Positions 10 to 19,429 of a stretch of DNA of 25,894 nucleotides are shown in pieces. Location of the stretch: positions 366,064-391,957 of the IMG/VR virus record IMGVR_UViG_3300021077_000115. One strand, written 5' to 3'. The stretch comes from a virus. Both the position numbers and the translations under genes were made by a program. The notes below the pieces were generated by a model. The model saw only the letters and a list, made by a program, of their open reading frames with translations. It ran no database searches and was not told where the DNA came from. Within the stretch, counting starts at the first letter, position 1, and every line of letters begins with the position of its first letter.

Positions 10-1920
10 TTATCCTGGAGGAGCTGGTGGTTTCGGTGCTCCACCGCCGCCTCCGCCAATCGGAGATGGTGGTGGTGATCCAGACATTGGACCAGGTCCG
101 GGAGGTGCTCCTAATCCCCCACCTAATCCACCTGGTGCCGCTCCTCCACCTGGTGGAGTTATGAATGGACTTTCTCCTGGTACTGGTTGATCAATCTGAG
201 TCACCTCATCAATCTCATCGCCAGGTCCAAGAGCCCTTAGCTCATGAAGATCATATTGTGCTAGAGAGGCTAGTTCTTTGATTCGAATTGCATCTTGAAT
301 ATCTTCGTAGCGAATCTTTCTCTGCTCTTCTTCGTATTCAAGACCAAGGCTTCTATATAGCGTTTGCAATGAAGCGCGCTTAGCCACACCTTCGCCGGTT
401 GTAAGCTGAACCATCTGATTGATGTAACTATCCATATCAAACAATGACATGTGATTCCAATCAATCTCTGGAACAATAAGAGTCTTCTCTCCGTCAATTA
501 GGTCATAAAAGTCCTGGATTTGTGCAATTGGAGCGAAGATTTTTCTCTTCAACCAACTAGACATCATTTGACGGAATTGCATGTATCTCTGTCGCAACAC
601 ATCCAAAGCAACAGATCCTGTTGCATAAGTGGTATCACTGCCATCCATAATAACCGATGGAACCATCAAGCCAATATAGATCTCTTTGATAAGCTGAGTC
701 ACGTCAGCCGAAGTATCATAAATACCCTGGCCATATCCAATACGATCAACGGTTACGGCATCATGGGTGAAAATCTTGAAGTCCCTATCGTATTGAGCTT
801 GCTCGAATACGTGTCTCCAGTTCTCAAGATCAACTGGGCTTGGACGGAATTCCTGGTTTCCAATCTTAACCAATGTCAATGGATTGACCATGTTATCTGC
901 TTGTGCATACTTAGATTCGCGCAATTTGTCCCACAACATAAGAGCTCGGAAACACGAAACAATAAGGCCCGTTCCACGAATTTCGTATGGGGAAATTCTT
1001 CTAGCCATATGATGCACATAGAAGTTGTTTAGGGGGATTTGCTCATTCTTTCGTACATGCTCAATGATCGAAGGGTCCAGCTGCTTGCGCTGTTGTAGAT
1101 CTGATGGTTGATTACCAAAAACTACTCGTCTAAGATTCTCATCTGGGCGCATACTAATGATTGGCTCTGCCGCAATTACGCTACGCTGTACGTTGACATA
1201 ATCCGGATTGAGAATCATCAGGCGGCTCCAACTTCCCTTGCTCTCGTCTAACTCGCAATAAGTAAAGGCCTCACCAAGAATCCAAAATTCTTGGGCTGCC
1301 ATACAGGCAATATTCATTAGATCAATTTCCTCCGACATTTGGGAGAAGAACTTCTCTACCTTCGGATTCTTTGATTTGATATTCAACTTAGCAATTGGAT
1401 AAGTTGAGTGTAATGTAATTGCATTATGAACAATTGGATTCAATGCAAAAAAGCTGCGGCTCCAAGCATTGATAGTTGGACGGTCTCTTGGTAAGTTGAG
1501 GTTCGAGTTCAACCATAGAGGAGAGTAGACTTCGGGAACTTGCCTTACAGAATCGTTAGAGCCACGCCAGCCCCCACCAGCAGAAGAGGCAACATTGCCG
1601 ACCCCACTGGCCATTTTATACATACCCTTGCCATTGTGAGTAACTACACCTAAACTAGTTTGAGCATTCCGAACTTCGCTGCGGCCACTCCTAGAAGATG
1701 AGAAACCAGACCCTTGCTCTCTCAGCTCTCCAGCATCAATCTGCATTTCCATAATATCTCGGCGTTGATCACTAACGCCACGAGCCATTCGATTGGAAAC
1801 CTCAGGAATACTAGAGAGAGCTATATTTTTGGCCATTAAGCTTTCAGAACGAGAAGCTATCTTAGCATTCCTTTCAATAAGGTCTTGCGCACGTGTTTTG
1901 GTATTATTAATATCCATCAT
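10..1920 (-). CDS. Putative portal protein (636 aa) with Gly/Pro-rich low-complexity C-terminal tail
   Basis: A 636-aa ORF begins 30 nt after the terminase large-subunit stop on the same strand. That is the canonical terminase-then-portal order, and the size fits a portal. I recognise no portal motif by eye, so the call rests on position and size. A weak SD (AGAGGA) sits about 3 nt before the ATG. Confidence 0.45.
   Translation of the reverse strand: MMDINNTKTRAQDLIERNAKIASRSESLMAKNIALSSIPEVSNRMARGVSDQRRDIMEMQIDAGELREQGSGFSSSRSGRSEVRNAQTSLGVVTHNGKGMYKMASGVGNVASSAGGGWRGSNDSVRQVPEVYSPLWLNSNLNLPRDRPTINAWSRSFFALNPIVHNAITLHSTYPIAKLNIKSKNPKVEKFFSQMSEEIDLMNIACMAAQEFWILGEAFTYCELDESKGSWSRLMILNPDYVNVQRSVIAAEPIISMRPDENLRRVVFGNQPSDLQQRKQLDPSIIEHVRKNEQIPLNNFYVHHMARRISPYEIRGTGLIVSCFRALMLWDKLRESKYAQADNMVNPLTLVKIGNQEFRPSPVDLENWRHVFEQAQYDRDFKIFTHDAVTVDRIGYGQGIYDTSADVTQLIKEIYIGLMVPSVIMDGSDTTYATGSVALDVLRQRYMQFRQMMSSWLKRKIFAPIAQIQDFYDLIDGEKTLIVPEIDWNHMSLFDMDSYINQMVQLTTGEGVAKRASLQTLYRSLGLEYEEEQRKIRYEDIQDAIRIKELASLAQYDLHELRALGPGDEIDEVTQIDQPVPGESPFITPPGGGAAPGGLGGGLGAPPGPGPMSGSPPPSPIGGGGGGAPKPPAPPG
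13..190 (-). repeat. GC-rich low-complexity tract encoding a poly-Gly/Pro tail (PPGGGAAPGGLGGGLGAPPGPGP...GGGGGGAPKPPAPPG)
   Basis: A stretch of ggtgg/ccacc/cctcc-rich sequence stands out against the AT-rich surroundings. It encodes the last ~60 residues of the 636-aa protein. The + strand ORF 5..190 is the mirror-image artefact. Confidence 0.6.
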
Positions 1921-1949: not shown

Positions 1950-3818
1950 TTATCCACGGCCACCAAACATCTTAGGAATATACCCAACAACTGCCTGGAT
2001 TGGACGTGCGCTTGTAGCTAGTTCGTATTTCATATATTGTGGATTGCTAATCGTGAATCCCTGGGTTACATCGAATTTCCAAGCCAAATAGGCATTCAAT
2101 AGCGCCATCAAACCGTCGTTAGCTACAGACCCTTTTACATACTTTTTTAAAGGCTCCCCTGACTTATCCCTAGTAACTTTAATCTCCATACTTGCGCAAT
2201 GTTCGATTAGCCATTCGATTCGGTCTAAGCTCCCACCTGGAAACTTGATACGGCCTTCTTTCAAAAGCCCAAGCAACTCTGAAATATAATAGTCTTTTTC
2301 GAATACAACTGTCTTTGGCCACTCATCATTTGAATATTTTATGCGTCCATTTACCTTATGCGAAGAACGAGATGCCAAAAACTTCTCATCATAAATTAGT
2401 TGCAATTTATGTGTCAAGTCATATGCATCACCAATGTCGCCGATGGATAATGTCATATTGTAGCGCCTAAACATTTCCTCAACTGTATTCATCTTCGTCT
2501 CTGGATCTGGTCTAAGCAACCGAGTGGCAAATTCAACATTGAATACATTTCCAGAGGCAGTTAAAATAACAGCACAACTATAGGAACCTTTACGTCCTCG
2601 CCCAGACATCTGTTCAAGCGCTCCTCTCTGGCCCCAGTCGAATCCTGCATAAACTCGACGACCTTCATCAGGATAAATATACTTGACCATCTTGCGACCC
2701 TTATCGATGCACTTATCGCGAATCTCTTGGGACGTAATTGTTCCGCCTTCGCCGTCGTAGAATTCACCAAGAACTTCGTTCATGTAAACGCGCTCGGTAT
2801 TAATTGGACTACGCTCTGGCTTTGCTTTCTCTATGGTCTCTTTGGTAAAATTTGGAATGTATAATTGATTGATGTGATAGCCAACAAAATCACACTTCTC
2901 AGGATCGTTGATTGGAATCCATCGGCCACGTTCCTGAGCTTCAAGCTTATCTTGTTCGCAATGACACTCAGTACATCGAACAATCAAGCCATAGAGCCAT
3001 ACCTCTTCCCAGTTCACACCAGGATGATATAGAGGAAAATATTTTCCACATCTTTCACAGCGCAAATGAAAGTAATTCTGTGAAGAATTCTGCCACATAT
3101 TCCAATAAGATCCGCCTTTGGTCTTGGGCGTTCCATAATATACTTGAACACCTTCACCAGCCATTCCGTATCTGGATTGCGCTAGAATCTTTGTAGCTGC
3201 ACCGATAGCAGCGTCGGACATGTCTTGTACCTCATCAAAGAAAGTACCATCACAAGTACGACCACGAATTCTATCGCCGTCGATACCGGTCGATTCAATC
3301 CAAATCTGATTTCCAAACATGAATTTTTTGAAATGCATGTTGTTATTAGTCGGACTAGACAAATCCAAACGCGCTTCCATGTATGACTTCAGAATGCCAT
3401 TGCTCTTCATCATTCCTGGAACTGGAGCCGCGTGACCAATGATTGGATCAAGTTTATCTTTTGTATACGCTGCCGCTAAAGATAACGTCGGGAACAAATG
3501 CATCATGCGCATTGGTGGACGTTCGTTAGTACCAAACAATCCACAGGCACTGAAGTAACACTCAAGAGCTGCCGCCATCGTCGTCGCCCCCACCTGCCGT
3601 CCTTTCACAAGAACAATGGGTTTTGAGTTTGGCTCAATAGCTTTGAGTGCTATGTATCTGTAAATGTCGGCGAATGGCTTATAGCCAGTACCTTCTAATT
3701 GTAACGGCTTACCATCAACAGTTAAATATTTTGCACAAAAATATACCGGATCAAGACTTAGAATTCCGTCACGAAGTTTATAAAATAACTCATTAAATCC
3801 TATTTCTGCAGATTTCAT
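1950..3818 (-). CDS. terL: Terminase large subunit (ATPase + nuclease), 622 aa
   Basis: It has a Walker A-like motif (VLVKGRQVGATTM) and a Walker B/catalytic motif (DGTFFDEVQD). The length of ~620 aa and the position directly upstream of the portal candidate fit. This is the standard TerL architecture. Confidence 0.85.
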   Translation of the reverse strand: MKSAEIGFNELFYKLRDGILSLDPVYFCAKYLTVDGKPLQLEGTGYKPFADIYRYIALKAIEPNSKPIVLVKGRQVGATTMAAALECYFSACGLFGTNERPPMRMMHLFPTLSLAAAYTKDKLDPIIGHAAPVPGMMKSNGILKSYMEARLDLSSPTNNNMHFKKFMFGNQIWIESTGIDGDRIRGRTCDGTFFDEVQDMSDAAIGAATKILAQSRYGMAGEGVQVYYGTPKTKGGSYWNMWQNSSQNYFHLRCERCGKYFPLYHPGVNWEEVWLYGLIVRCTECHCEQDKLEAQERGRWIPINDPEKCDFVGYHINQLYIPNFTKETIEKAKPERSPINTERVYMNEVLGEFYDGEGGTITSQEIRDKCIDKGRKMVKYIYPDEGRRVYAGFDWGQRGALEQMSGRGRKGSYSCAVILTASGNVFNVEFATRLLRPDPETKMNTVEEMFRRYNMTLSIGDIGDAYDLTHKLQLIYDEKFLASRSSHKVNGRIKYSNDEWPKTVVFEKDYYISELLGLLKEGRIKFPGGSLDRIEWLIEHCASMEIKVTRDKSGEPLKKYVKGSVANDGLMALLNAYLAWKFDVTQGFTISNPQYMKYELATSARPIQAVVGYIPKMFGGRG

Positions 3819-3875: not shown

Positions 3876-4754
3876 TTACAGATGGCCTTTATCTGGCTCT
3901 AATAGGGTAAACGGATCCTTGTTTGAGTCTTTGTCCCCTGAATAATCAACGTGAGTACCCACACCACGTCCAATGTGAGATGGGACATCATTCCTAGCAA
4001 CGCCCTTATTAATGAGTCTTCCGTTGATCCAATCTAGCAACTCCCTGTCTGAGAAAATTCGATGGTCAACCCCGTCTCTACTAAAGGTTTCAATCAATGA
4101 ATGGAGAATGGCTGGCATCTGAATGCCAATATTTGTCTCTATTACGTTATTGAGAAAGTGCTCAATAGCCGGATTTTCTACGAGTAAATCTGGTTTCTCG
4201 GCATCATCTGCCTCAGAGATTAATTTTTTTTTTCCAGGGTTAGCCTGTAGTTCCTCTTCGGTCATATCGCGAGCTTCGCCATAATCAAGATTCCTTCGGA
4301 AGGCATCAATGGCATCGTCCTTATCACCATCGTCTTCGTCCTCCTCTTCTTCCTCGTCTTCATCTTCCTCGTCCTCATCATCATCCTCTTCGTCTTTGTC
4401 CTCTTCTTCCTCATCTTCGTCTTCGTCATCTTCGGAAGCTTTGGCAATTATTTCGCTAGCAATGGCACTAAGATCGCTTTCGCTGGCTCGCTTCATATAT
4501 TCATCAAGCCCAGTTTGACGCTGATAGTCCTTCACAGCCTCTTCGACAGAGCTATACTTTGGCTTCTGGCCACTAACGATAGCACTCATCATTTCATAAA
4601 TAGAAGGCTGATGCTGACGATCCCTAGCAACTTCAACGGCAGTCTTAGAAGAAGCCATTTTAGTAGCAAGCAGATCAATCCAATCTGGACACTGATCGTC
4701 AGGCTCTCGGCTAATCTCATCGGTTCTGTAAAAGGCACCCTTGTAATTACGCAT
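3876..4754 (-). CDS. Hypothetical protein with ~45-residue poly-Asp/Glu tract (292 aa), located directly upstream of terL
   Basis: It is a long ORF with a good SD (AGAGGA, 5-nt spacer) before the ATG at 4754. It contains the run EDDEDEDEEEEDKDEEDDDEDEEDEDEEEEEDEDDGDKDD. I could not assign a function. Confidence 0.65.
   Translation of the reverse strand: MRNYKGAFYRTDEISREPDDQCPDWIDLLATKMASSKTAVEVARDRQHQPSIYEMMSAIVSGQKPKYSSVEEAVKDYQRQTGLDEYMKRASESDLSAIASEIIAKASEDDEDEDEEEEDKDEEDDDEDEEDEDEEEEEDEDDGDKDDAIDAFRRNLDYGEARDMTEEELQANPGKKKLISEADDAEKPDLLVENPAIEHFLNNVIETNIGIQMPAILHSLIETFSRDGVDHRIFSDRELLDWINGRLINKGVARNDVPSHIGRGVGTHVDYSGDKDSNKDPFTLLEPDKGHL
4321..4430 (-). repeat. Low-complexity GAN-codon repeat (poly-acidic tract)
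   Basis: The + strand reads tcttcgtcctcctcttcttcctcgtcttcatcttcctcgtcctc... This creates spurious poly-Ser and poly-Lys/Arg ORFs in other frames (4309..4518 +, 4262..4447 -). Confidence 0.7.
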
Positions 4755-4838: not shown

Positions 4839-5744
4839 TTATCCTCGGTATTGCGCACTCCAATCAAACCCATCATTTCTATAAGTTTCAATGTGACTGC
4901 CAACAGCATATCCTCTATCCTGAGACATAGGAAATCCCATATCTGCTAATAACTGGGAAAGTTCAGCCTGCTCCCTTTTATCAAGAGTATATTCTTCTAC
5001 TTGACGCTTGAATATATCCTCAATATCATGTCCGGCCGATACCATTCCATTGATACAAACACGCGCAATTCTTGAAATCAACAATGGAACTGTAATCGTA
5101 ATACCAGTGATATTTGTGGCCTTTTGAGCCTCTTTGACAATGCCAGAATCTTCTGACCAGCTCTTGCTCTTCTTCTTCTTGTGACGCTTGTACTTATCAA
5201 CCTTCACACTCTCTAGACGGTCTAGTAGGCGCTCAAGTCCATTTTCAATTTGCTCACGAGCCCGCTCGGCCTGTGCGGCATCAATCTCATCTTTGAAATC
5301 GGTACGCATAGCTTTTGATATCTCACGATCCAACGCTTCAAAATAAGCAATTGCCTTTTCCAATCCGGTAGTATCATAACCAGAATGTGGGGGAACGCCA
5401 TTGAACATTTTGCTAAGCCAAGGAAGGAAGCTAGAGTGTTCCCATTTCCATGCATCAGAATCTGCAGGATCGGCCTCTACCTCAATATCTTCGTCATCAC
5501 CGTCATTCTCTACAATAATATCCTGTGCATCAGGAGCACCCGGAATCTTGTCAAGATTGAAAATGACTTCATGAGGATCTTTTGAGACCTCAATATTATC
5601 ACCTATTTCAAAGGACGGAAAATGATGCCCGCCTCCCATCAAAGGGACAATAACTTCTCCTAAATCTTGTGCGCGTTTTTCTACCATTACAACCTCAATG
5701 TTGCTAACAAACCTATTCTGAATTATTCGTATAAATTCTTCCAT
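4839..5744 (-). CDS. Hypothetical protein (301 aa)
   Basis: This is a long ORF in the same orientation as its neighbours. It is preceded by a 213-bp AT-rich intergenic region. I saw no recognisable motif. Confidence 0.55.
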   Translation of the reverse strand: MEEFIRIIQNRFVSNIEVVMVEKRAQDLGEVIVPLMGGGHHFPSFEIGDNIEVSKDPHEVIFNLDKIPGAPDAQDIIVENDGDDEDIEVEADPADSDAWKWEHSSFLPWLSKMFNGVPPHSGYDTTGLEKAIAYFEALDREISKAMRTDFKDEIDAAQAERAREQIENGLERLLDRLESVKVDKYKRHKKKKSKSWSEDSGIVKEAQKATNITGITITVPLLISRIARVCINGMVSAGHDIEDIFKRQVEEYTLDKREQAELSQLLADMGFPMSQDRGYAVGSHIETYRNDGFDWSAQYRG

Positions 5745-5957
5745 ACCTTGTAAGCCAATATCTTGCGAATATAGTCTTTTGAGACCTTAAACCTAATAAA
5801 TAAATTAGAAACTCCTTGATAATATAGATTTCTAATATTAATAATATCCTCAGATTTTAATTTTATTCTATTTTTCCAGGCATCACTCATCTTCTTTTTG
5901 TTTCTTGGCTAACAATTCTTCCACTAAGCTTTTTGGAGACCTTCTCTTTTTGCTGAC

Positions 5958-6443
5958 TCATATTTTCCTTATAATATCAATTATATAACTACCTTGAAGG
6001 CTATAAGTTCCAAAGTATAAGTTTCTCGTCACATTGTAGTCGCTGAGGTAACCGGCGGGATAAGTAGTCAGACCTGTGATGATACCATTGAACATCTTGG
6101 AATAATATGGTGATGGCATCAGTGGTTGAGCCGGACCTTGCCCAGGAGCCGTATCATCGTGATTACATTCTACCGCATCATTATGTTCTAGAATATGCCC
6201 CGCATACTTACAAGGAGACGGTTCATCTGAGCTTCGTAATAAATTCCAAGCAAGAAGCTTAGCATTAGCGGCAGCTAACATTTCCTTTTCATCCTCGGAT
6301 GCTTCCTTGCCCATAACTCCAAACGGTGCCATTTGGTCTACATAATCGCCGGCATTTTTGCAGGCAAATGGTATTGGAAGACCGAATGGGCATTTGTTCT
6401 CTTCATTCTTACGAACTTCTGCTATTTTTAAATGACGCTTCAT
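5958..6443 (-). CDS. Hypothetical Cys/His-containing protein (~160 aa from internal ATG), translationally coupled (ATGA) to the upstream nucleotidyltransferase
   Basis: The ATG at 6443..6441 overlaps the TGA stop (6442..6440) of the nucleotidyltransferase ORF. The six-frame ORF runs further upstream (to 6497), but its first Met in context is the ATGA one. It contains CPFGLPIPFACKNAG and CKYAGHILEHNDAVECNHDD. Confidence 0.5.
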   Translation of the reverse strand: MKRHLKIAEVRKNEENKCPFGLPIPFACKNAGDYVDQMAPFGVMGKEASEDEKEMLAAANAKLLAWNLLRSSDEPSPCKYAGHILEHNDAVECNHDDTAPGQGPAQPLMPSPYYSKMFNGIITGLTTYPAGYLSDYNVTRNLYFGTYSLQGSYIIDIIRKI

Positions 6444-7183
6444 AATGCCACCGGTTGTTGCTGTGCAAGAATTCTTGGAATACCAACAACGTTCCAAAGT
6501 TTCATAGTCGAAAGTAACTGCATAGTTTTCTTGACATCAGCCCTTGTGGCATCGGCCAACTTTCTCCTAGAAAATCCAACAGATACTTCTTCCTTAATCT
6601 TGTCGTGGTGATTCAAAACCCACATGATAATGTCTCTTTCAACTGTAAATCCAAGCTTTGCTGCAAGGTAAATCGCTCGCACCACACGCTTCGGGTCATC
6701 TCTAAGAGTGATACGTGGTGGCAATGGGGTCCGGATAATCTTCTTCTTTATATCATCTATAGCCAGACCTGTCGGATCTACAATCTTGCGCAATGCCAAT
6801 GGGATGATAAGAGTGTTACAGGTGAAGTCACGACTGAATAATTCCAACAGCATGCTAGAAGGATCTTTGATGCCGGCCTTTTCTAAAAAGTATGCGGCAT
6901 CTGGAGAATTAAAGTTTGAAGAGAAGTCGAATTTGATTTTGTTTATATACAGCTGATAATGGCCATCAGGAAAGCGTATTGGGTTGACTTTGAATTGTTG
7001 TGCTGTCAACTCTGCTAACTGATGAATGGATTCGTCCCCAGAAGTAATATCAACATCCTCTACTTTATTGATACGATTAAGGATTTTATCACGCGGAAGT
7101 CCGCCGACAATATATGGCTCAGACAAGCCATTGTCTTTAGCAAGGCGCTTCACGTCCAGTAATACATCCCTAACTCCGGCCAT
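6440..7183 (-). CDS. Class-II tRNA nucleotidyltransferase / poly(A) polymerase family head+neck domain (247 aa), lacking body/tail domains
   Basis: The head domain shows YIVGGLPRDKILNRINKVEDVDITS (the GGxxRD ... DxD nucleotidyltransferase motif) and SRDFTCNTL (the conserved RRDFTINAL motif of the PolyA_pol head domain). DDPKRVVRAIYLAAKLGFTV matches the neck motif DPLRILRAlRFaakLgF. Confidence 0.85.
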   Translation of the reverse strand: MAGVRDVLLDVKRLAKDNGLSEPYIVGGLPRDKILNRINKVEDVDITSGDESIHQLAELTAQQFKVNPIRFPDGHYQLYINKIKFDFSSNFNSPDAAYFLEKAGIKDPSSMLLELFSRDFTCNTLIIPLALRKIVDPTGLAIDDIKKKIIRTPLPPRITLRDDPKRVVRAIYLAAKLGFTVERDIIMWVLNHHDKIKEEVSVGFSRRKLADATRADVKKTMQLLSTMKLWNVVGIPRILAQQQPVAL

Positions 7184-7192
7184 TCTTCTCCT

Positions 7193-9151
7193 TTATCGAA
7201 CATCAATTCTTGGGGCTCGTTCAATCGTAGAGACTGGCTTCTGCAAATCAGCAGATTCTCCAACAGGAACAGCGGCTGGGCCTACATCTGGGCCTGCAGC
7301 TCCGCCCTGCATCTTCGCAAGATCTTGTTCCTTACGCATCTCTTTGCGCTTTTCATCTTCGTCCTTCTTTTGTTGTAGATTGTTCCTGATATTAGTGGTT
7401 TCAGGATTCATCGCAACAGTCTTTGGCTCAATCCATTCAGAAGCACCAGGTACCTCAATTGATCCTTTAAGCCTAGTAAGCACACCCTCTAGGCGACTTC
7501 CGATGTATTGGTTCGACTCAAGAGCCTTACTCATTGCCTCGCCCAAAGCTGGGAAGAATGAAGATAGGCTAAGGCGATCCATCATAATATCAAGGATAGC
7601 TAACTGACGAGCAATCTCTCGTTTGTTATAAATCGAAACAAGCATTTCCAATCTACTCACAACATCATTGATACTCACGCCCTTGAGAGCTGCGTCAATA
7701 ACATCTTCTGTATTATCCTCTGGAGTCTCTTCCACTGGCGGAGGTGCTTCCACAACACTTGGTGGAACATCAGGTGGCGGTGGGGGAGGTGGTGACGGAG
7801 AAAGTGCTTCTTGAGCAAACTTTGAACGAGGATGCCAATACCCACGACCAATCTTAATTACGTCTGCAACCTCAATAGCCGCTGCGGCCTGTGGGGCACT
7901 TGGCTGAGGCTGAGCAATAGGCGGTGGAGCTTCTACAGCTGGCACGCCAGCTGGCGCTGGAGGAAGTGGAGGCACCTCATGGCTTCGTTCTGACCTCCTC
8001 TCCTCTGGTGTATCGTCTTTATCTGAGACTCCTCTCTCTAGATTATCAAAGAATTCTTTTAGACATTGATAAGTATCATTCTTATCCCCTTCACCTGATG
8101 GTGGGGCTTCTACTCCAGGAATACCTGGAGGTGGAGTCATGCCTCCTGATGGATCTAGTTGAGCCAGCTTATAAAAGAAACCAGCAGCGCCATCCTTGCC
8201 TCTTGCCTTTAATAGGTTTGCTGCTCGATAGATTTGGTCTACGAACAATGAAGAACCAGATGTTAGCTTGTTGGCGGTTTGAATTCTTCGCTTCAGATCT
8301 TGAAGAAGCTTCAGCATCAGCTCCTGATCATCGCCAGCAAATAATTGACCATCCATAGAGGCCAACATTTTCTCTGCCGAGTTTAGGCGGCTAATGAGCT
8401 TTCTACGTTGTCCTTCAATTTTATCGCGAGCAGAATTAACGTCACCTTGTGGCATGCCAGGGAGCTCATCTCTCATCCCTCCGATGGGATTTGGGAACTT
8501 TCCACTACGATGTCGAGCGCGCAAAGAATCTACACCGATAGGAAGATTAGCTAGAAATAGCCCATCTTGAGCCAGCTTGGGATACTTCTCGGGAGTCCTC
8601 TCCTTATAGAATTTCAGCCATTGTTCATAGTCCATTTGTTCCTTTGCTTCCCAGTTACCAATTACAGATTTTTTTGCTTGAATAGGATCATTACCTTTAC
8701 TCATTAAACCATATATCTCGCGAGTAGCCGCTACCCAACGACCAATGTCATATTTAGGGAATTCTGAAATTGACCCAGGTTGTGGGTAAGCGATCTTTGG
8801 TCTAATATGTCCAGATACCATCTTCTTTAATGCGAGATCAGTGGCTTCTATCAGCTGTAAAAGTGTACCGATTGGTGCTTTTTCTCTGTTCCTGAACACT
8901 TCCGCAGCAATTGCACGAGCTGTAGAGTCATTGAGTTTTACCTTAAATATCAAATGAGCAATCTCTGGGACATGATTTCTTACCAAGAAGAATCTATTTT
9001 GGTCTTCGTCATTGTCGATACCAAGCTGTGACATCGTATCAAAATCAGATAGCACTCCGTTCCGAAGGTCTTCTGGTAAGCATTCACAATTTGCCGAATC
9101 AACTTGGCGCTGAAAGTGTTCATTAAAAGTCATCGGACTCCTCATCTTCAT
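7193..9151 (-). CDS. Hypothetical proline-rich protein (652 aa) with three VEAPPP-type repeats
   Basis: It is a long ORF. The central region reads GIPGVEAPPSGE / GVPAVEAPPPIAQPQPSAP / PPPPPPPDVPPSVVEAPPPVEE. I found no enzymatic motif. Confidence 0.6.
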   Translation of the reverse strand: MKMRSPMTFNEHFQRQVDSANCECLPEDLRNGVLSDFDTMSQLGIDNDEDQNRFFLVRNHVPEIAHLIFKVKLNDSTARAIAAEVFRNREKAPIGTLLQLIEATDLALKKMVSGHIRPKIAYPQPGSISEFPKYDIGRWVAATREIYGLMSKGNDPIQAKKSVIGNWEAKEQMDYEQWLKFYKERTPEKYPKLAQDGLFLANLPIGVDSLRARHRSGKFPNPIGGMRDELPGMPQGDVNSARDKIEGQRRKLISRLNSAEKMLASMDGQLFAGDDQELMLKLLQDLKRRIQTANKLTSGSSLFVDQIYRAANLLKARGKDGAAGFFYKLAQLDPSGGMTPPPGIPGVEAPPSGEGDKNDTYQCLKEFFDNLERGVSDKDDTPEERRSERSHEVPPLPPAPAGVPAVEAPPPIAQPQPSAPQAAAAIEVADVIKIGRGYWHPRSKFAQEALSPSPPPPPPPDVPPSVVEAPPPVEETPEDNTEDVIDAALKGVSINDVVSRLEMLVSIYNKREIARQLAILDIMMDRLSLSSFFPALGEAMSKALESNQYIGSRLEGVLTRLKGSIEVPGASEWIEPKTVAMNPETTNIRNNLQQKKDEDEKRKEMRKEQDLAKMQGGAAGPDVGPAAVPVGESADLQKPVSTIERAPRIDVR

Positions 9152-9955: not shown

Positions 9956-12900
9956 TTACTTTTTCGAAACAAATGGAGACAATCCCTTAATTGGATTGAA
10001 TTCTTTTGATTCTCCAGGCTGACGTGAGGTACCAGGAGTCCACCTTGGAGTGCTGATACGACTACGCGCTGGAATATTTCGTACTCTTACTGGCCCACCC
10101 TCACCCTTTTGAAGATCTTCAAGTGAAGGTGAATCGCCAGACATTCCAGGGTCTCGTACGCCCTTTCCTTTACGTGGCTTCAAAATCGAAGCGAACGTCA
10201 CCGGTTCTTCTCGCCTTGGGTACTTGCCTCTTTGTTCTCTGTCCTTGCCCAAACCACCAATGGCAATTTGATATGGAGGATAGAAACCTTGCTCCATCAT
10301 CCATTTGTTTTGTTCTTGTTGGCTAGCCTCGGTATCTTCCTTATCAGATTGTAGATTATTATAAGCATATTCTATAACATCCCAAGGAAGGTTAGCATCA
10401 GGGAATCGCTCTTCAAGTTGCTGCTTTGCATCACTGAATGGCATCTTGCTGAAAGCTAGAGCTGTAACAGTATCACGAATCTTCTGTCCGCTCTGACTAA
10501 CATACTTTCTGATCCTATCTACAATTTGATAGTCGATTCCCATTGAGTCAGCAATCTCTTCCAATTTCTTCTTGGGAACTCCTTTGACTGCTAATGGAAG
10601 TATCTTACTCTTGATGCCAATAGGAATATCAGCTAGATTATCCTTATTAGATCCAACAATCTTATTCCATTCATCCGGCTTGTCTCTCCATTGAGTTGAG
10701 AATTGTTTCTGAGCCTCAACGAATGCTTGCTGATATTCTTCTGGATCTGAGAATAATGTCTTCAGCCCATGATAGTTTGGAAGAATGTTACCAGAGACTT
10801 TCTTGTCTAGATTTCGAAGAAGCTGTCTTGTTGTTTGATAACCAAACACTGGTTCGTCTGGTGAGTTGAATCCCTTAGAGACCATTTCATCAGCTTGCGC
10901 CTTTTTCTCAGCGTCGCCGTAGCCTTCAAAGTGATTCTTGGCCGCTACAAAAGCATCCCAATATTCTTCTGGATCTTGCCAAAATTGAACAAGCTTCTTT
11001 CCATCTGGCCCAATTGGTTGCTTCTTAAAGAATGGAGCTTTGGCTCGCTCCTCTCCCATAATATTTCTCAAGTCAATATTTACCTGATTGAAGGTAATAT
11101 TATCGTCCTCCCCAGGCTCAATCATCGGTTTGAACCCAGCTTCGCCCAATACTTTATTGACGCTTCTTCTAATGATTCTTCCCTTTATATCGGTTCGATA
11201 GGCGTTGATTTCCTGAGTCTTCTGTGGTCCAACTCGAAGAAAACGAGATGCCTTGAGATCGTTCAGAGATGGAACGGTAAAGAATTCTGTGCTCTTATCG
11301 CTATATGTATTCTTAAGATATTCAGCAATCGCTGTAGGGTCCTTAAGCTTAGGATCTCTATTTTTCTTGGCAAGATAAGTATTGACTGCCCTTGGAATAT
11401 CTCCATGCTTCAACATATCTGCGATATGACGATCTTTACTTTCCTCAACCAAATATTCTGATACGGCTTTAGAAGATTCTCCACGACCAAGCATATCCAT
11501 AACTTCGCCACGAATATCATCTGGTAATGAAGTTACCGACTCAGGGTCTTTGTCAACATTATATACAAAGTTCCTGAGCGCTTCTTCTAGCTTATCATTA
11601 TCTGATTTGATCTTGCTTTCAATCTTATTCTCAAGCTCCTTAGCTTGGACCTCATTGATAGTTATTCCCCAATGCTTTTGATAATCTCCCCATCTTAGGT
11701 ACTTGTACTTTTGAGAATTGCTCGCAGGTTTTTCTGCCGAAAGCTCAGGCTTCTCTTCTGGTATGGTCTTACCAATTTCTAAATGTTCTTTGGAGGGCGG
11801 CGGTACCTGACGTTCTATTGGAATTTCCTTTTCTTTTACCTTTGGATTCCATGGGCCATATTTAATCTTTCGCATTTCATCTAGAATGTTCTCGAATATT
11901 TCATCATTGGTAGGCGTTGGCTCACCAGATGCATTCCTATCTACAATTCTTTCTGTCATCGTATAGAACATCTTCGAAGCTTTTGTATCTTCATCGGAAA
12001 CCCATCTCTTCTTACTTTTCTCGAATTGATAGATTTCGGATATGATTTTCTTAGGCTCTCCCTCAGCGAAAAATGCTTTAGCCTCTTCTTCTGCCGCTTG
12101 ATACTCTGGACTATTCTCGTCGTATTCCCCTTCATCTGCTTTTGGAATTGGAACAATAGCTGGTCTCTTTTTTTCTGTTCGAGCAGCTGGGGCCTCTGGT
12201 GCTACCTGCTCTTGCAAAGCGCTGCCGAACTCGGCATAAGCCCAATCTCTAACTAAATTCGCAAACTCAGAAAACATTTCTGCATTCATTTCTTTGCGAA
12301 ACTTCTGAACTTCATAATTAGCTGCTGCGTCAACAAGATCCTTTCCGTGAAGACTGAGCTTGAATCTGTGATATTCTTTCGGGTCTACCAAACCAGCCTT
12401 AAGTTTTCCAATAACATATTGAGCAAGATCTGGAAGCTTTTCGGATGTTATTTTATGCTTTGTCGTTGCCCTCTCACCTTCAAAAGGATCCAAGATCTGA
12501 ACAGGGGCTGTGGCAGGTAAAGGCGCTTCTAGCGCAGATGGAATTTCATTTGGTTCTAATTTTCCGCCCAAATCCAATACGGGAGCTGGAACTGCAGCTT
12601 CCTTTAAGATTCTGGAAAGCAAATTTAAACTCTTGTTATCATCTGAACTATATTGATCAGCAATCTTCTGCAACGTATCTTTATTGACGCCAAAGCTGGC
12701 CATCACTTTGATATGCTTATCAATCAGGTCAGTCCATCCCAAATCACGTAGATGCGGGAACAATGATTCGGCAACCTTGACTTCATCGGTTGGCTTTTCG
12801 AATTGGCTATTGAATCCAGATGTCAATACCGACTTTATCTGTTGATCTTGTAAGCCCTCAGCTTTTGCCTTGGCGATTGCAGATTTCAACAAATGTGGAG

Positions 12901-14227
12901 CTATTTCTTGAACAGCATTGATCACCAGAGCCATAAGACTTTGGTGTGCAGTGGCCGTATCAGCATATTCAATCTCATCTTTATATCGTGGCCGTTCCAT
13001 ACTCGGAATAACGGCTGGAGGGGGCGCTGATGGGGGTATTGTTGCAACTCCAAAATCAGGCTTATTCCCAATAAACTCCGCATTTAATAGAGCTAGATGA
13101 TTTTGGTGCATACCAATATCTTCCAAAGATTTAAGCGTATCATCCATCATCCTTATCCACTGAGTGGAATTCTTAGGATCTGCCTTTACTATTTCTGATA
13201 AAGGCTGAAGAACGCTCTTGGCATTGTAATATTGGTCCTCGCTTTCTCTCTTTGATAGTGTTCTATTTATCTTACTCTTGAGCGGAACTCTTTTTTTTTT
13301 ATCAGATTCGTCATCAGCTAGTGTTTTAAGTCCGGCATCAGAGATATCCGAGGCAAGTATAATCGCCACTTGGGATGTTGATAACCCAGCATCCATAGCA
13401 TTATCAATGGCCCGGTCTAACAAACCAGGAGCATGATCACGAATTGCCTTCAAAGCAGTTGCTATCTTGACAATAATCTGTTTATCGCTGGAAGCATAGC
13501 GGCCCATCAAAGATTCTCTTGTCTCGAATAGTGACATGCCCTGATCGCGAATATCTCCAAGGTCATGAGTCTGATTCTCCACAGACCCGCCTGGAACTTC
13601 ATTACCCTTCTGGGTCTTGTAGCCAGCTTTGTAGTCATAAATAATACCAGTGACAATGTCTTGATAGACATGATCAGTGATACGTGTCATCTGTCCACCT
13701 GGACGATCCGGTGGATACCGAGTCTGAAGAGGAGCCTCCATCGGAACATAGCGTTTAACCTGTTGTTCAACTGCCTTGGCCTGAGCCTGGGCATTCTCCA
13801 TTGTTGAAAGACGCTTACGCGGTTCATCGTAGCATTCTTCGCCGGTAGTCTTACGACGCTCAGTTCGTAATCGATTTATTTCATCTTCAGTGACTTTACG
13901 AGCAGCAGCCACTGCATTCTTTGGAGCGGCAATCGAAAGTAACAACTCATCAAGCACAGATGCCTGCTTCTTGAGCAAAGGATCTTCGCTTTCATCAAAT
14001 GCAGAAGCTAGAGCGGCAATCTCATCCAATTGTTGAGGTGTAATTTCGAATGACGCATGGTTGTCCATATCATCAGCAACACCCTCTAGAAGAGTAGATG
14101 CGGCGGCAATTGCCGTAGCTACTTTCTGAAATACATCAGGGTTCTTCTTGGATGCGCTAACCAACAGATCATCGCTGCTCTTCTCTAGCTTGCGGGCTAG
14201 AACTCTTAAGTCCATTGAAATTGCCAT
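9956..14227 (-). CDS. Giant hypothetical protein (1423 aa); possibly a virion internal / ejected or structural protein
   Basis: It is an uninterrupted 4.27-kb ORF with no recognisable catalytic motif. It has internal repeats (QDPEEYWDAFVAAK / SDPEEYQQAFVEAQ) and a basic C-terminal tail. The structural guess rests only on its size and its position in the operon leading to terminase/portal. Confidence 0.65.
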   Translation of the reverse strand: MAISMDLRVLARKLEKSSDDLLVSASKKNPDVFQKVATAIAAASTLLEGVADDMDNHASFEITPQQLDEIAALASAFDESEDPLLKKQASVLDELLLSIAAPKNAVAAARKVTEDEINRLRTERRKTTGEECYDEPRKRLSTMENAQAQAKAVEQQVKRYVPMEAPLQTRYPPDRPGGQMTRITDHVYQDIVTGIIYDYKAGYKTQKGNEVPGGSVENQTHDLGDIRDQGMSLFETRESLMGRYASSDKQIIVKIATALKAIRDHAPGLLDRAIDNAMDAGLSTSQVAIILASDISDAGLKTLADDESDKKKRVPLKSKINRTLSKRESEDQYYNAKSVLQPLSEIVKADPKNSTQWIRMMDDTLKSLEDIGMHQNHLALLNAEFIGNKPDFGVATIPPSAPPPAVIPSMERPRYKDEIEYADTATAHQSLMALVINAVQEIAPHLLKSAIAKAKAEGLQDQQIKSVLTSGFNSQFEKPTDEVKVAESLFPHLRDLGWTDLIDKHIKVMASFGVNKDTLQKIADQYSSDDNKSLNLLSRILKEAAVPAPVLDLGGKLEPNEIPSALEAPLPATAPVQILDPFEGERATTKHKITSEKLPDLAQYVIGKLKAGLVDPKEYHRFKLSLHGKDLVDAAANYEVQKFRKEMNAEMFSEFANLVRDWAYAEFGSALQEQVAPEAPAARTEKKRPAIVPIPKADEGEYDENSPEYQAAEEEAKAFFAEGEPKKIISEIYQFEKSKKRWVSDEDTKASKMFYTMTERIVDRNASGEPTPTNDEIFENILDEMRKIKYGPWNPKVKEKEIPIERQVPPPSKEHLEIGKTIPEEKPELSAEKPASNSQKYKYLRWGDYQKHWGITINEVQAKELENKIESKIKSDNDKLEEALRNFVYNVDKDPESVTSLPDDIRGEVMDMLGRGESSKAVSEYLVEESKDRHIADMLKHGDIPRAVNTYLAKKNRDPKLKDPTAIAEYLKNTYSDKSTEFFTVPSLNDLKASRFLRVGPQKTQEINAYRTDIKGRIIRRSVNKVLGEAGFKPMIEPGEDDNITFNQVNIDLRNIMGEERAKAPFFKKQPIGPDGKKLVQFWQDPEEYWDAFVAAKNHFEGYGDAEKKAQADEMVSKGFNSPDEPVFGYQTTRQLLRNLDKKVSGNILPNYHGLKTLFSDPEEYQQAFVEAQKQFSTQWRDKPDEWNKIVGSNKDNLADIPIGIKSKILPLAVKGVPKKKLEEIADSMGIDYQIVDRIRKYVSQSGQKIRDTVTALAFSKMPFSDAKQQLEERFPDANLPWDVIEYAYNNLQSDKEDTEASQQEQNKWMMEQGFYPPYQIAIGGLGKDREQRGKYPRREEPVTFASILKPRKGKGVRDPGMSGDSPSLEDLQKGEGGPVRVRNIPARSRISTPRWTPGTSRQPGESKEFNPIKGLSPFVSKK

Positions 14228-16552: not shown

Positions 16553-16831
16553 ATGGAGACATTCTTAAGCATCCCTCTTGAAGCTATCACTACTTCAGGC
16601 AACAACGCTTTCCACTGGAAGGGTGTTGTTGGGGACGTTTTAATTACAATATCTGGCAAGAAGTTATCAAAAGATTCCTTCAATTATATTGTATATGTAG
16701 ATTTGTGCGGATTTCCTGAAAAGTGGTGGCCTGGCAACAGAATACAAATCGCAGAAGCTTCTGGAGAAAACCTCTTATTTCTAGAGACGGAAATAAGACG
16801 GCAGCTGAGGAGGCTGCAGATCAACCTCTAA
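16553..16831 (+). CDS. Questionable small ORF (92 aa) inside the intergenic boundary region
   Basis: This is the only + strand ORF not embedded in a minus-strand gene. It has no SD, contains the hairpins described below, and overlaps the probable minus-strand promoter region, so it is probably not coding. Confidence 0.2.
   Translation: METFLSIPLEAITTSGNNAFHWKGVVGDVLITISGKKLSKDSFNYIVYVDLCGFPEKWWPGNRIQIAEASGENLLFLETEIRRQLRRLQINL
16776..16819 (-). terminator. Pair of adjacent stem-loops immediately after the stop of the sigma-like gene (candidate terminator)
   Basis: Perfect 8-bp inverted repeat cttatttc-N8-gaaataag (16776..16799) and a 5-bp one gcagc-N7-gctgc (16803..16819). On the minus-strand transcript the first is followed by aggUUUUCUcc. 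The stems are AT-rich, so this is a weak call. Confidence 0.3.
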
Positions 16832-17265
16832 TTATACTGAGAATGAATCTCGGCAATTTGGGTAATGATATCCTGAATCTTTGGGTCTCTATCTGCCAAG
16901 CGGCGCAACTTCTTCTTGGCCCCTCCGTAAATCTTTCGGCCATTGCGGTAGTCACAATTTCCATTCACTGACTTTGTGATGGAGCTTTGATTGACATTGA
17001 GCTGCTTTGCAATCTCAATTTGGGTGTAACCCTTGCTCAAAAGTTCAATGACTTGGAATTGACGTCCAGTCAGATTCTCTTTGGCCAGCCTCCAAAATTC
17101 GCCCTTCAGCTGTTCCCTTAATACCAACAGCTGCTCTCTGTCTTCTGGATTATAGTTTTCTACCAAGCCTTGAGCTTCCGAAAACTCAGCCATCATTTCA
17201 TTAGAGTATGGTTGTTCAGCAAATAAATGTTGATATCCGTTCGATCTGTTTGTTTTCCTTCCCAT
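16828..17265 (-). CDS. Sigma-70 region-4-like HTH DNA-binding protein (putative phage transcription factor / sigma-like), 145 aa
   Basis: LTGRQFQVIELLSKGYTQIEIAKQLNVNQSSITKSV...AKKKLRRL fits the sigma-70 region-4 / LuxR-type HTH pattern (L..RE..V..L...G.t..EIA..LgvS...V......A..KLR). The annotated start overlaps the primase by 50 nt. The true start may be the internal MMAEF at ~17196. Confidence 0.55.
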   Translation of the reverse strand: MGRKTNRSNGYQHLFAEQPYSNEMMAEFSEAQGLVENYNPEDREQLLVLREQLKGEFWRLAKENLTGRQFQVIELLSKGYTQIEIAKQLNVNQSSITKSVNGNCDYRNGRKIYGGAKKKLRRLADRDPKIQDIITQIAEIHSQYN

Positions 17266-18070
17266 CTAATCTCCCGAAGCTCTTTAATGTATCTATAACA
17301 TGCCGAATCTCTTCTATATCTTTTGAGCCTCGAAAAAACTCATCAATATCCTTAAATCCACTAGGAGGACTTATCAGTTTAATATTTGCCACATCCTTAA
17401 ACTTTTCCCTAATCCTAAACTTTCCCTTCTTCCCGGCATCATCATTATCAAGCATAATGATTATATTGTTTGTATACCTATGAATCTGGAACATTTGATA
17501 TCTAGATAAATTAGCCCAACCAAATGCAACGGCATTTGTAATTCCATTTGCATGTAGTGAAATACAATCAAATTGTCCCTCTACACCTATAACACAGTCA
17601 TTAGCTATAATTGAATCACGGGCCTTATCTAAACCATAGACATACAGATCTTTTCGGCAGCCAGCATTGTAATTATACTTCTGCATCTCCCTTTCACGGC
17701 GTTCTTCTTCTGATATCAAACACCTACCAACTAAAGCAATTACCTCTCCGTGTACATTATAGAAAGGCATCACTAGATTATGATCTGCAAAATGTCCATG
17801 AGGAGCCGTTCCCCCTTCAAGATGCTTTGGATAATATAACTTAAGAGATTCTAAGTCATCCTTATCAATCATCGAAGTAAGATCACAAAGATGATCATCA
17901 ACCGGGAAGTATCCAAACTTCCATGCCATTTGATCGTCTTTATCGAGGCGTGAATTTAAGTAGCGTCTGGCTAGGCGTGCAGAGTCAGATGTCAGCAATA
18001 AATGCTGACATGCTCTAACTACCTTTTGTAGAATCTTTTGTCTCGCGTTATGTTGAATAAATGATCTCAT
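17216..18070 (-). CDS. dnaG: DnaG-type DNA primase catalytic core (TOPRIM), 284 aa, without an N-terminal zinc-binding domain
   Basis: ARRYLNSRLDKDDQMAWKFGYFP matches the DnaG YL..RGL....I..F.lGYAP signature. The TOPRIM motifs are VIGVEGQFDCISLHANGITNAVA (conserved E) and IIIMLDNDDAGKKG (DxD). Confidence 0.8.
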   Translation of the reverse strand: MRSFIQHNARQKILQKVVRACQHLLLTSDSARLARRYLNSRLDKDDQMAWKFGYFPVDDHLCDLTSMIDKDDLESLKLYYPKHLEGGTAPHGHFADHNLVMPFYNVHGEVIALVGRCLISEEERREREMQKYNYNAGCRKDLYVYGLDKARDSIIANDCVIGVEGQFDCISLHANGITNAVAFGWANLSRYQMFQIHRYTNNIIIMLDNDDAGKKGKFRIREKFKDVANIKLISPPSGFKDIDEFFRGSKDIEEIRHVIDTLKSFGRLDGKENKQIERISTFIC

Positions 18071-18423
18071 CCACCATCAGCTCTCCTCTGAGCCACTAGA
18101 TTTACTTTAATCATCTCTGCAAATGGTTTGGATAGCGAATCTAATTCTTTACCACAAAATGAACACACAAGGTTCTTGCCGTCCTTGCTTAGTTCTGGTG
18201 GGCCTTCTTTATTACAAGGCTTACACTTCACAGCCCATGGTAACTTCTTTTTCTCATTGCGTCTTACCTGATCATAAGATATCATTTGACGACGCATAAA
18301 AATAGAAATGCTATTTACTGGCTTTCCACATTCAGTACAATAAGCAATGAAGCTTGCCTTATCAACTACAGGCCTCATTTCTTTTCCACAGCCTTTATTA
18401 TCACAAAAACATCTATATTCCAT
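18067..18423 (-). CDS. Double zinc-ribbon protein (118 aa), ATGA-coupled to the primase core
   Basis: It has four CxxC pairs (CFCDNKGC...CTEC; CKPC...CSFC). Its stop TGA overlaps the primase ATG (18070..18067 reads ATGA). Confidence 0.55.
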   Translation of the reverse strand: MEYRCFCDNKGCGKEMRPVVDKASFIAYCTECGKPVNSISIFMRRQMISYDQVRRNEKKKLPWAVKCKPCNKEGPPELSKDGKNLVCSFCGKELDSLSKPFAEMIKVNLVAQRRADGG

Positions 18424-18430
18424 ATTTATC

Positions 18431-19429
18431 CTACTTCGGAGACGCTGGGATTATAACTGGCTTTTCCAAAACCGAAATCAAATCAGAAACATCTTCTGGG
18501 TACGTTACGTTTATCACAAACACATGTGCTCCATTGGGCGGCACACCAAACCCAGAAACTCTAACTCTGTCTCCATTCCTTATCTTTGGCTTGAACTCTA
18601 AAACCTTATCACCCCTAATGGTTCGAAGATTTTTCTTCGTTCCTTGGAGAGCCTCAAGTAAACTAAGCTCTACTGTAGATATAACATCACTCCCATCGAG
18701 TATTAGGCCATTCTCATTGGGTAGTACATTGATCATAACTACCAAGCTATCATATAGATCTTTGGTTCTATAGTTGCCTCTACCATTAAGGGTTAGGATC
18801 GTACCATTCTCAATACCAGCTGGAATTGGTATTGATATATCTTCTTTGATGCGTTTCTTAAAAGTACCATTGCATGATTGACATACGCCAGAAGTAGAAT
18901 AGCCAGTCCCCTTACATCCATTACATGGCAATTCACGATTGTCAGCAGGTTGAATAGCACCGCTTCCATATTTTCGTTTGCCAGTTCCATTACACTTGAT
19001 GCAAGTAGTTTTGATATTGGCATTATTACAATCAAAACATTTTACCAAACGAGAATAAGAAATATCCTTTCGGCCACCTACTATTGACATCTCAAATGGA
19101 ATATCAGCCTTCACAGCTATAGGCGGCCCTGGTATATTCGTGAATTTTTTATTGAACACCTCATCCATTTGGCGTCTAAGTTCTTCTGCCAAATGATCTG
19201 CTGTATTATAGAATGGAGATTTTAGATCATTGAATGCTGGAGGGCTTGTTCCAAACTTCTCTAGTAACTGAAAGGCCTCGTTAATTTTTTTGAACTTATC
19301 TTCAGCATCTGGAGATTTGTTTCTATCAGGGTGATACTCAATAGCCTTCTTCTTAAATGCCGCTTTGACATCAGTTCCTGATGCTCCAATAGGCAATCCA
19401 AGTAAGGCGCATGCGTCATGAGTGTTCAT
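18431..19429 (-). CDS. dnaJ: DnaJ/Hsp40-family co-chaperone homologue (J domain + CxxCxGxG zinc-finger domain + C-terminal substrate-binding domain), 332 aa
   Basis: The N-terminal J domain carries the invariant HPD (KKKAIEYHPDRNKSPDAEDKFKKINEAFQLL). The CR-type zinc-finger repeats are CFDCNN, CIKCNGTG, CNGCKGTG and CQSCNGTF. The CTD has the GTILTLNGRGN pattern. The start overlaps the ruvC stop as ATGA. Confidence 0.85.
   Translation of the reverse strand: MNTHDACALLGLPIGASGTDVKAAFKKKAIEYHPDRNKSPDAEDKFKKINEAFQLLEKFGTSPPAFNDLKSPFYNTADHLAEELRRQMDEVFNKKFTNIPGPPIAVKADIPFEMSIVGGRKDISYSRLVKCFDCNNANIKTTCIKCNGTGKRKYGSGAIQPADNRELPCNGCKGTGYSTSGVCQSCNGTFKKRIKEDISIPIPAGIENGTILTLNGRGNYRTKDLYDSLVVMINVLPNENGLILDGSDVISTVELSLLEALQGTKKNLRTIRGDKVLEFKPKIRNGDRVRVSGFGVPPNGAHVFVINVTYPEDVSDLISVLEKPVIIPASPK

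Follow-up and report, generated by a model that had tools for sequence, protein, structure and literature searches.

How does an RNA nucleotidyltransferase that belongs to the CCA-adding/poly(A)-polymerase family of class II come to end just where the domains that hold its tRNA substrate would be expected to begin, and is such a gene damaged or complete? These questions are raised by a viral DNA stretch of 25,894 nucleotides (nt) (IMG/VR record IMGVR_UViG_3300021077_000115, positions 366,064 to 391,957; hereafter the window), in which all genes lie on the minus strand. One of these genes encodes a protein of 247 amino acids (aa), here called NTase, and it is followed directly by an open reading frame (ORF) in another frame, ORF B. 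A preliminary description made from the sequence alone had taken the pair for a truncated or split, head-only class-II enzyme that may use a coupled partner. As judged from its sequence and predicted structure, NTase is a class-II CCA-adding/poly(A)-polymerase-family catalytic core that consists of head and neck, and comparison with its relatives indicates that it is a real, intact gene under strong constraint. The three sequence blocks on which the family had been proposed (VGGLPRDK...EDVDIT, FSRDFTCNTL and LRDDPKRVVRAIYLAAKLGF) were all found as quoted in the translation of NTase.

The family assignment was borne out by sequence profiles as well as by structure. NTase matched Pfam PF01743 significantly, with a score of 42 bits (E 1.4e-10) where the model's threshold is 23; in this match residues 24-151 aligned to profile positions 2-126 of 126, and it matched two PHROG tRNA-nucleotidyltransferase families (E 6e-16 and 2.5e-10). 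A profile built from 40 family members found the solved class-II enzymes of the PDB with E values from 3e-19 to 1e-9. Each of these matches covered only about residues 1-265 of PDB chains that are 390-580 aa long, and NTase aligned to residues 49-282 of a 613-aa full-length enzyme. The AlphaFold2 model of NTase was confident (pLDDT 95.4). Foldseek comparison of this model with the PDB gave E down to 1e-12, with 4WBY, 1VFG, 6QY6 and 1MIV at TMq 0.68-0.71 over 230-240 aligned columns; the superposition took in nearly all of NTase (about 235 of 247 residues), whereas of each target roughly half was covered, namely its head and neck. The neck domain that adjoins the head (nucleoside triphosphate (NTP) pocket) was present in the NTase model, and body and tail domains were absent from NTase, which stops at the equivalent of residue ~265-282 of enzymes of 390-613 aa. 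These alignment limits support the earlier statement that the protein stops where the body domain would begin. The term head-only was right in that a catalytic core without body and tail is present, and wrong in that this core includes the neck. In full-length enzymes, recognition of the acceptor and T helices and fixation of the tRNA elbow are tasks of body and tail (PMC3925840). The family assignment itself is already known and not new, as the Joint Genome Institute (JGI) annotates NTase as 'tRNA nucleotidyltransferase/poly(A) polymerase'.

Residue conservation was counted over 178 distinct NTase homologues, two of them fragments. The motif A residues G27, G28, R31, D32, D43 and D45 were kept in 176 of these, the other two being gapped at these columns, and the third carboxylate, D86, was found in all 178. 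The D86 column corresponds in the alignment to the Glu of the Aquifex 'LEFATAR' segment, and in the Aquifex enzyme Glu74 has been named the third catalytic carboxylate (PMC3925840). Motif B, which serves ribose recognition (S117-R118-D119-F-T-x-N, with Ser in place of the first Arg of RRD), was invariant, as were D136 and D144 of motif C, the DxxGxxDL hinge; fragments aside, the same was true of E114 and of R166, R169, Y172 and K176, the latter four in motif D. The template within motif D reads D162-D163-P-K-R166 in NTase and matches the EDxxR-type Asp/Arg pair, the templating D163 being Asp in 133 of the 178 homologues (including the window); 36 others have Asn at this place, and the remaining 9 have Gln, Ser or Lys. 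This full set of conserved motifs would provide the window NTase with what an active, C/A-specific core needs, and we infer from the conservation that it is catalytically competent and C/A-specific.

Superficially, a short enzyme gene with a second ORF behind it in another frame is also the picture that a sequencing frameshift in a full-length CCA enzyme, or a decaying pseudogene of one, would produce. We rejected this explanation, for which we see practically no chance, on the following grounds. The identical pair of 247 and 161 aa was present in three independent assemblies, one from JGI and two from Logan. A length of ~250 aa moreover proved to be the conserved state of a large family and not a sign of a damaged or recently broken gene, as 'truncated or split' might suggest. 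The protein database held 578 NTase homologues, the 120 best of which (45-100% identity) were nearly all ~240-255 aa long, except for two 182-aa fragments and one protein of 290 aa; 170 of the 178 distinct relatives had 237-261 aa. The two-ORF layout with overlapping stop and start codons persisted at 64-89% identity (loci L010-L013, L021 and L022), and in six relatives with longer NTase ORFs (311-783 aa) the C-terminal module was a different one and not body/tail. Nor did ORF B carry a body/tail signal, since hhalign against the body/tail C-terminal half of full-length enzymes returned probabilities of 1.5% and 0.1%, in agreement with the earlier remark that ORF B is unlike the helical body domain. 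The two ORFs are thus not one frame-shifted gene, and both of them have many invariant residues.

Direct reading of the junction between the two genes (GCA TTA TGA AG) confirmed the ATGA overlap that had been noted, with the NTase TGA (6442..6440) overlapping the ORF B ATG (6443..6441), and placed a Shine-Dalgarno-like GGTGG (6448..6452) 4 nt 5' of this ATG. From the overlapping ATG, ORF B is 161 aa long instead of the 160 aa first given, while the mechanical ORF list starts it at an upstream TTG (179 aa). Its reported Cys/His content amounts to exactly four Cys and four His, and it is mildly acidic, with an isoelectric point (pI) of 5.8. ORF B has 52 close homologues, and a profile search extended the family to 248 cluster representatives at 50% identity. 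C18, C28, C78 and C93 were present in every covering sequence (195-198 of 195-198), and such invariance fits a structural zinc site, which the four residues probably form. Profile searches of Pfam, PHROG, NCBIfam and the PDB returned no relative of ORF B.

To place the pair in its genomic setting, a pattern scan of IMG/VR was used that found 198 NTase relatives; 80 loci were retrieved and compared, and 70 non-redundant loci served for counts of gene arrangements. A second scan was anchored on the downstream protein p301 and not on NTase, in order to avoid circularity. In all 70 assessable p301-anchored loci the short NTase was found upstream of p301. The order common to all loci was p163, p508, p1423 (or a ~240-aa version), p272, p652, NTase, a variable slot, p301, p292, TerL and portal, and in the window it reads p652, NTase, ORF B, p55, p301, p292, TerL and portal. 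Relatives were often located on contigs of 200-452 kb in IMG/VR, and on contigs of 392-463 kb in the protein database. No close relative was found among GenBank phages by megablast, the best TerL match there was 25% identical, and ORF B had no match in GenBank phages by tblastn. A search for cellular homologues in 185,579 species genomes gave a single 1.8-kb contig of a metagenome-assembled genome. From the synteny, NTase is to be regarded as a core gene with a fixed place in the genomes of an uncultured huge-phage lineage (~450 kb). A VanY/M15 peptidase, a sigma-70 region-4-like protein and DnaJ encoded in the neighbourhood point to a bacterial host for this lineage.

Whether NTase acts together with the gene that follows it can be judged from the content of the variable slot. 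In many relatives the gene downstream of NTase encodes, instead of ORF B or in addition to it, a disordered lysine-rich module (M) with the motifs '(A/S)YFQGG...PTPKKKKYK', 'F(Y/W)RNYDY' and 'GPGxGLY...KYKSVxDF...KRKK'; a six-frame search of the window for the M motif found none. The 70 loci were divided among NTase followed by M (24), NTase followed by ORF B as in the window (19), NTase, M and ORF B as three successive genes (17), an NTase-M fusion (4), an NTase-M fusion followed by ORF B (2), NTase followed by an M-B fusion (2), and NTase-(M)-B in one polypeptide (2). No locus (0 of 70) had neither M nor ORF B, and the gene 3' of NTase, be it M or ORF B, usually started with a 4-nt or 1-nt overlap in the IMG/VR loci. 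Fusion of M to the short NTase was seen in L039, L075, L076, L078, L081 and L088, with an additional DnaJ J-domain in L075 (9995-12346). In the fusion proteins P0261, P0286 and P0298, PF01743 occupies about residues 23-150 and the ORF B domain is C-terminal; the contigs of P0261 and P0286 were retrieved and share the synteny of the lineage.

These data bear on the possibility that NTase works alone and that ORF B is an unrelated neighbour in a variable hot-spot that collects homing endonucleases. ORF B is indeed missing in about half of the lineage, the slot gathers selfish genes of GIY-YIG, HNH and TnpB-like type, and the poor structural model of ORF B offers no functional clue. Yet NTase-(M)-B fusions occur in at least three divergent clusters at 50% identity, the stop/start overlaps are conserved, no locus lacks both M and ORF B, and in all 18 IMG/VR loci of ORF B that could be assessed NTase was present on the same contig. 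We consider a solitary NTase very unlikely. Fusion, strict co-occurrence and translational coupling together favour a partnership over chance adjacency, and from these genomic patterns a functional partnership of NTase with ORF B or M appears much more likely than a chance neighbourhood. The coupled partner of the preliminary description is in this way upheld by adjacency, overlapping codons and natural NTase-B fusions, but needs qualification in that ORF B is not universal and about half of the loci carry M instead.

The slot and module M showed some further peculiarities. The start of M, '(A/S)Y(F/Y)QG(G/T)' followed by 'PTPKKKKYK', is located exactly at the NTase-M junction in fusions and resembles a protease site of the Gln-Gly type (examples are L056:10731-11465, L063:10755-11591 and L076:9995-11605). 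Apart from the enzymes fused or adjacent to ORF B and M, all identifiable genes of the slot are mobile ones (GIY-YIG, HNH and TnpB-like), for which it appears to be a hot-spot. A TnpB-like protein (Cas12f1-like TNB domain, E 8e-16) lies between NTase and p301 in L060 (11556-12299), and an HNH endonuclease occupies the slot in L057 (10755-11357; weak Pfam match, E 1.6e-3), with a closely similar one, by eye, in L083 (2804-3412). In the window, p55 (55 aa, 5723..5890, minus strand) between ORF B and p301 looks like what is left of a GIY-YIG/NUMOD3 homing endonuclease, namely its C-terminal helix-turn-helix (HTH). At the corresponding place L010 has an intact copy of 276 aa (7327-8157), with 39% identity to p55 over 46 aa (E 4e-6) and a Pfam GIY-YIG match at E 1.5e-14.

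What would such a core and its partners do? We propose that NTase is the stand-alone catalytic core of a class-II template-independent RNA nucleotidyltransferase, and that the role of body and tail in holding the acceptor and T-arm of tRNA may have passed to small downstream proteins made by coupled translation. In the window the holding protein would be the Cys4, probably zinc-binding ORF B, whereas relatives would use M or both, sometimes fused to the enzyme. With the Asp/Arg template that selects CTP and ATP kept, the likeliest reaction would be to extend RNA 3' ends by C and/or A, and tRNA the most probable substrate, its CCA ends being restored or built during infection. This upkeep of CCA ends might form part of the translation-takeover and counter-defence toolkit of a ~450-kb phage; lists of the translation genes that huge and jumbo phages carry already include CCA-adding enzymes (PMC7162821; PMC7824862). 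The basic character of NTase (pI 9.5) is in line with this proposal. Enzymatic activity, C/A specificity, contact with ORF B and an RNA or tRNA substrate are parts that we infer, and we give the proposal as a whole, from the complete core with outsourced substrate-holding to the C and/or A addition at tRNA ends, about an even chance of being correct.

Several observations weigh against this proposal. The NCBIfam equivalog cut-offs were not reached by NTase (NF009814, 51.9 against 290 bits; TIGR02692, 50.5 against 438.8 bits; PcnB TIGR01942, 42.5 against 305.65 bits), and the templating Asp is replaced by Asn, Gln, Ser or Lys in 25% of the family. With regard to the supposed holding protein, the AlphaFold2 model of ORF B was poor and unreliable (pLDDT 48), the ORF B family is acidic (median pI 5.8) and in this respect atypical of an RNA-binding module, and about half of the loci lack ORF B and carry M. 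No tRNA genes were found in the window, in agreement with the preliminary description and as established by a tRNA scan and an Rfam search that detected no Rfam family in the window, nor were there any within 10 kb in 41 related loci. The short NTase coexists with a full-length CCA enzyme in L054. Finally, phage tRNA-repair genes are usually accessory and mobile, whereas NTase has a fixed place in the core, next to terminase and portal, which hints at a more basic role than tRNA repair.

Some of the same points would be explained if NTase tailed RNAs other than tRNA, adding poly(A) or oligo(C,A) to host or phage transcripts because the three-nucleotide 'ruler' of the tail domain is gone. Host RNA might in this way be labelled for decay, or phage RNA made more stable, and ORF B and M would choose the target. 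The PcnB model also matches NTase, albeit at 42.5 bits compared with 51.9 bits for the CCA model, NTase has no body and tail by which the tRNA elbow could be anchored, and core-gene status suits a general role in gene expression. Locus L054 is relevant here. Its short NTase (9995-10750) is followed immediately by a 613-aa full-length CCA enzyme (10747-12588, plus strand) that includes an HD domain and ends in a basic, M-like tail, and to which it is only 23% identical, and then by a 974-aa B-fusion protein; the short and the full-length enzymes of this locus are probably not redundant. Against a non-tRNA substrate, the best matches of NTase in both sequence and structure were tRNA nucleotidyltransferases and not PcnB, and the slot neighbours cREC and HD-CCA point toward end repair. 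On balance we consider tailing of other RNAs unlikely.

The enzymes that share the slot with ORF B and M provide further context for the proposed role in RNA-end addition. ORF B was fused to NUDIX in L006 (11312-12220), L040 (4856-5770) and P0177, and M was fused to the cyclic-phosphate processing receiver domain cREC (cREC_REC) in L004 (10753-11352, E 2.6e-14). In L041 and L054 the ORF B domain was joined to large unclassified domains, some with DGRHR motifs that by eye are ParB/Srx-like. Iyer et al. predicted cRec to be a phosphoesterase for 2',3'-cyclic ends or cyclic ADP-ribose that is linked to RNA ligases (PMC7824862), and Nudix was placed with cRec in the RNA-repair and NAD/ADP-ribose conflict systems of jumbo phages (PMC7824862). 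Few as they are, all of these slot associations point in the direction of nucleotide or RNA-end chemistry.

The attachment of ORF B and M to many unrelated cargos (NUDIX, cREC, CCA-HD, regions with DGRHR motifs and large unclassified domains) is also the pattern that delivery tags would show. This raises the alternative that NTase, M and ORF B have a role in head assembly or in the virion, where they would be capsid-internal or ejected with ORF B and M as docking tags, or that NTase acts on genome ends at packaging. In that case NTase would act on DNA, or right at the beginning of infection. A role of this kind and the main proposal need not exclude each other. A virion role would agree with the invariant position of NTase, across 35-100% identity, in a block that ends with TerL and portal, with the disordered nature of M and its short conserved motifs, including the protease-site-like '(A/S)YFQG', and with the acidity of ORF B. 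Conversely, library searches identified none of the flanking proteins as structural, the R-D pair that an enzyme using NTPs should have is retained in motif B, and a primase, DnaJ and an HTH regulator are encoded just upstream on the same strand, so that the block is not clearly 'late'. We regard a virion role as quite improbable. A more far-reaching possibility is that NTase, M and ORF B constitute an undescribed modular RNA-end-processing holoenzyme, in which ORF B would be a new zinc-binding recognition domain that recruits interchangeable enzymes (NTase, NUDIX and others) to a shared RNA or tRNA end, or to a capsid-internal delivery site, as a core function of ~450-kb phages; we put this forward tentatively, as possible but doubtful.

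Compared with solved class-II tRNA nucleotidyltransferases, NTase has the same head-plus-neck fold (E 1e-12, TMq ~0.7), motifs A-D, the three carboxylates and the Asp/Arg template, but is only 20-28% identical to them and has SRD where they have RRD in motif B. These enzymes contain a body/tail of 150-250 aa for the acceptor/T-arm and elbow, which NTase does without, whereas NTase is accompanied by the dedicated downstream ORF B and M. An architectural parallel is provided by the yeast TRAMP complex, in which the non-canonical poly(A) polymerase Trf4/5 is paired with the zinc-knuckle proteins Air1/2. Trf4/5 is a Pol-beta-type nucleotidyltransferase that has no RNA-binding domain of its own and needs its small Cys-rich partner for substrate. 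The likeness to NTase and ORF B is purely architectural, as the nucleotidyltransferases are of different classes, and Air proteins contain CCHC knuckles to which ORF B is unrelated in sequence.

Full-length phage enzymes belong to the same superfamily as NTase, likewise reside in large phage genomes, and gave the best tblastn matches among GenBank phages (26-32% identity); examples are Aeromonas phage 65 gp392 (348 aa), Tunturiibacter phage Tunturi_5 gp279 (482 aa), as well as the enzymes of Lak megaphages. They differ from NTase in being 330-590 aa long with C-terminal domains, in not adjoining terminase, and in having no ORF B or M. The short head-domain proteins of Autographiviridae (~170-220 aa) are similar to NTase in being phage-borne and in having no tRNA-binding domains (PMC7291057, PMC7693777). 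Among them are the 182-aa Gp22 of Klebsiella phage fHe-Kpn01, which is toxic in E. coli, and the 'tRNA nucleotidyltransferase' of Pectobacterium phage PP47/Q19 (PMC7291057, PMC7693777); S. pneumoniae has a head-domain protein that stands alone (PDB 2LA3) and can be grouped with them. The Autographiviridae proteins are ~65 aa shorter than NTase, which has a complete neck, and the NTase model matched phage proteins of 167-220 aa only weakly in structure (TMq 0.43-0.47, E 1e-3 to 1e-5). They are moreover encoded by small podophages, in the early/replication region, with no ORF B or M partner. With respect to M, Ascaris suum's mitochondrial CCA-adding enzyme has a K/R-rich C-terminal extension that raises its affinity for tRNA (PMC12013499). 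The K-rich M that some relatives have joined to their short NTase is similar, although the nematode extensions are located on otherwise full-length enzymes and M is absent from the window.

We regard as new, having found no description of them, the conserved head-plus-neck architecture, the core-gene status in a fixed block, the ORF B domain, the M module and their fusions. On the current view, class-II CCA enzymes cannot dispense with body and tail, by which the tRNA is gripped and the three added nucleotides are counted. A core-only family with more than 500 members and under strong constraint is a natural test of how the core and RNA-binding parts share specificity and termination, and here substrate handling appears to have shifted to separate, exchangeable proteins. 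The four-cysteine domain ORF B, without known relatives, and the peptide module M are attached to several enzymes that process nucleotides or RNA ends. That a core gene of this kind adjoins the packaging genes in phages which are among the largest known suggests that RNA-end chemistry may be obligatory for them and not an optional counter-defence.

Table 1. Features of the window (positions are those of the 25,894-nt stretch).
Feature	Description	Position	Strand	Basis
NTase	Minimal class-II nucleotidyltransferase (predicted head + neck core), 247 aa	6440..7183	minus	PF01743, PHROGs, AlphaFold2, conservation in 178 homologues
ORF B	Conserved orphan domain with four invariant Cys, candidate accessory subunit of NTase, 161 aa	5958..6443	minus	
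NTase/ORF B junction	Coupling junction, ATGA + GGTGG element	6440..6452	minus	read from sequence
p652	Pro-rich tracts; ends 9 nt before NTase start; directly upstream of NTase in essentially all loci	7193..9151	minus	
p301	Downstream boundary of the variable slot	4839..5744	minus	synteny
p292	Acidic protein just upstream of TerL	3876..4754	minus	
TerL	Large terminase subunit	1950..3818	minus	phrog_675 E 2.5e-55; PF05876 GpA_ATPase in relatives
Portal	Portal protein	10..1920	minus	phrog_16240 E 1.3e-46
p1423	1423-aa protein	9956..14227	minus	
HTH, primase, DnaJ	GerE-type/sigma-70 region-4-like HTH; Toprim/DnaG-like primase; full DnaJ (J, Cys-rich and C-terminal domains)	16828..19429	minus	

Upstream of NTase, the window encodes proteins of 652, 272, 1423, 508 and 163 aa, followed by the HTH protein, the primase and DnaJ. 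Searches of the PDB, Pfam and PHROG gave no match for p508, p652, p301 or p272 even when family profiles were used, and library searches detected no recognisable family for p163 and p1423. Among the identifiable neighbours it is TerL and portal only that give the surroundings of NTase a 'late' character, and with the HTH protein, the primase and DnaJ upstream on the same strand the NTase block is flanked by more than structural genes. A promoter and terminator scan of the window gave nothing above the shuffled background.

Some neighbouring proteins showed features of their own. The p292 protein has a poly-Asp/Glu tract of ~60 aa and a pI of 4.2. It had no match to a known family, but a scaffold or a small-terminase-like function is conceivable for it. 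The counterpart of the 1423-aa protein is ~240 aa long in most other members of the lineage, which makes the window version a large lineage-specific expansion. TerL has 622 aa in the window compared with 770-1341 aa in many relatives (for instance L006:13987-16698, L016:13705.. and L060:14475..), and one of the longer versions contains a LAGLIDADG_3 match, which suggests intein or homing-endonuclease insertions in the terminase gene.

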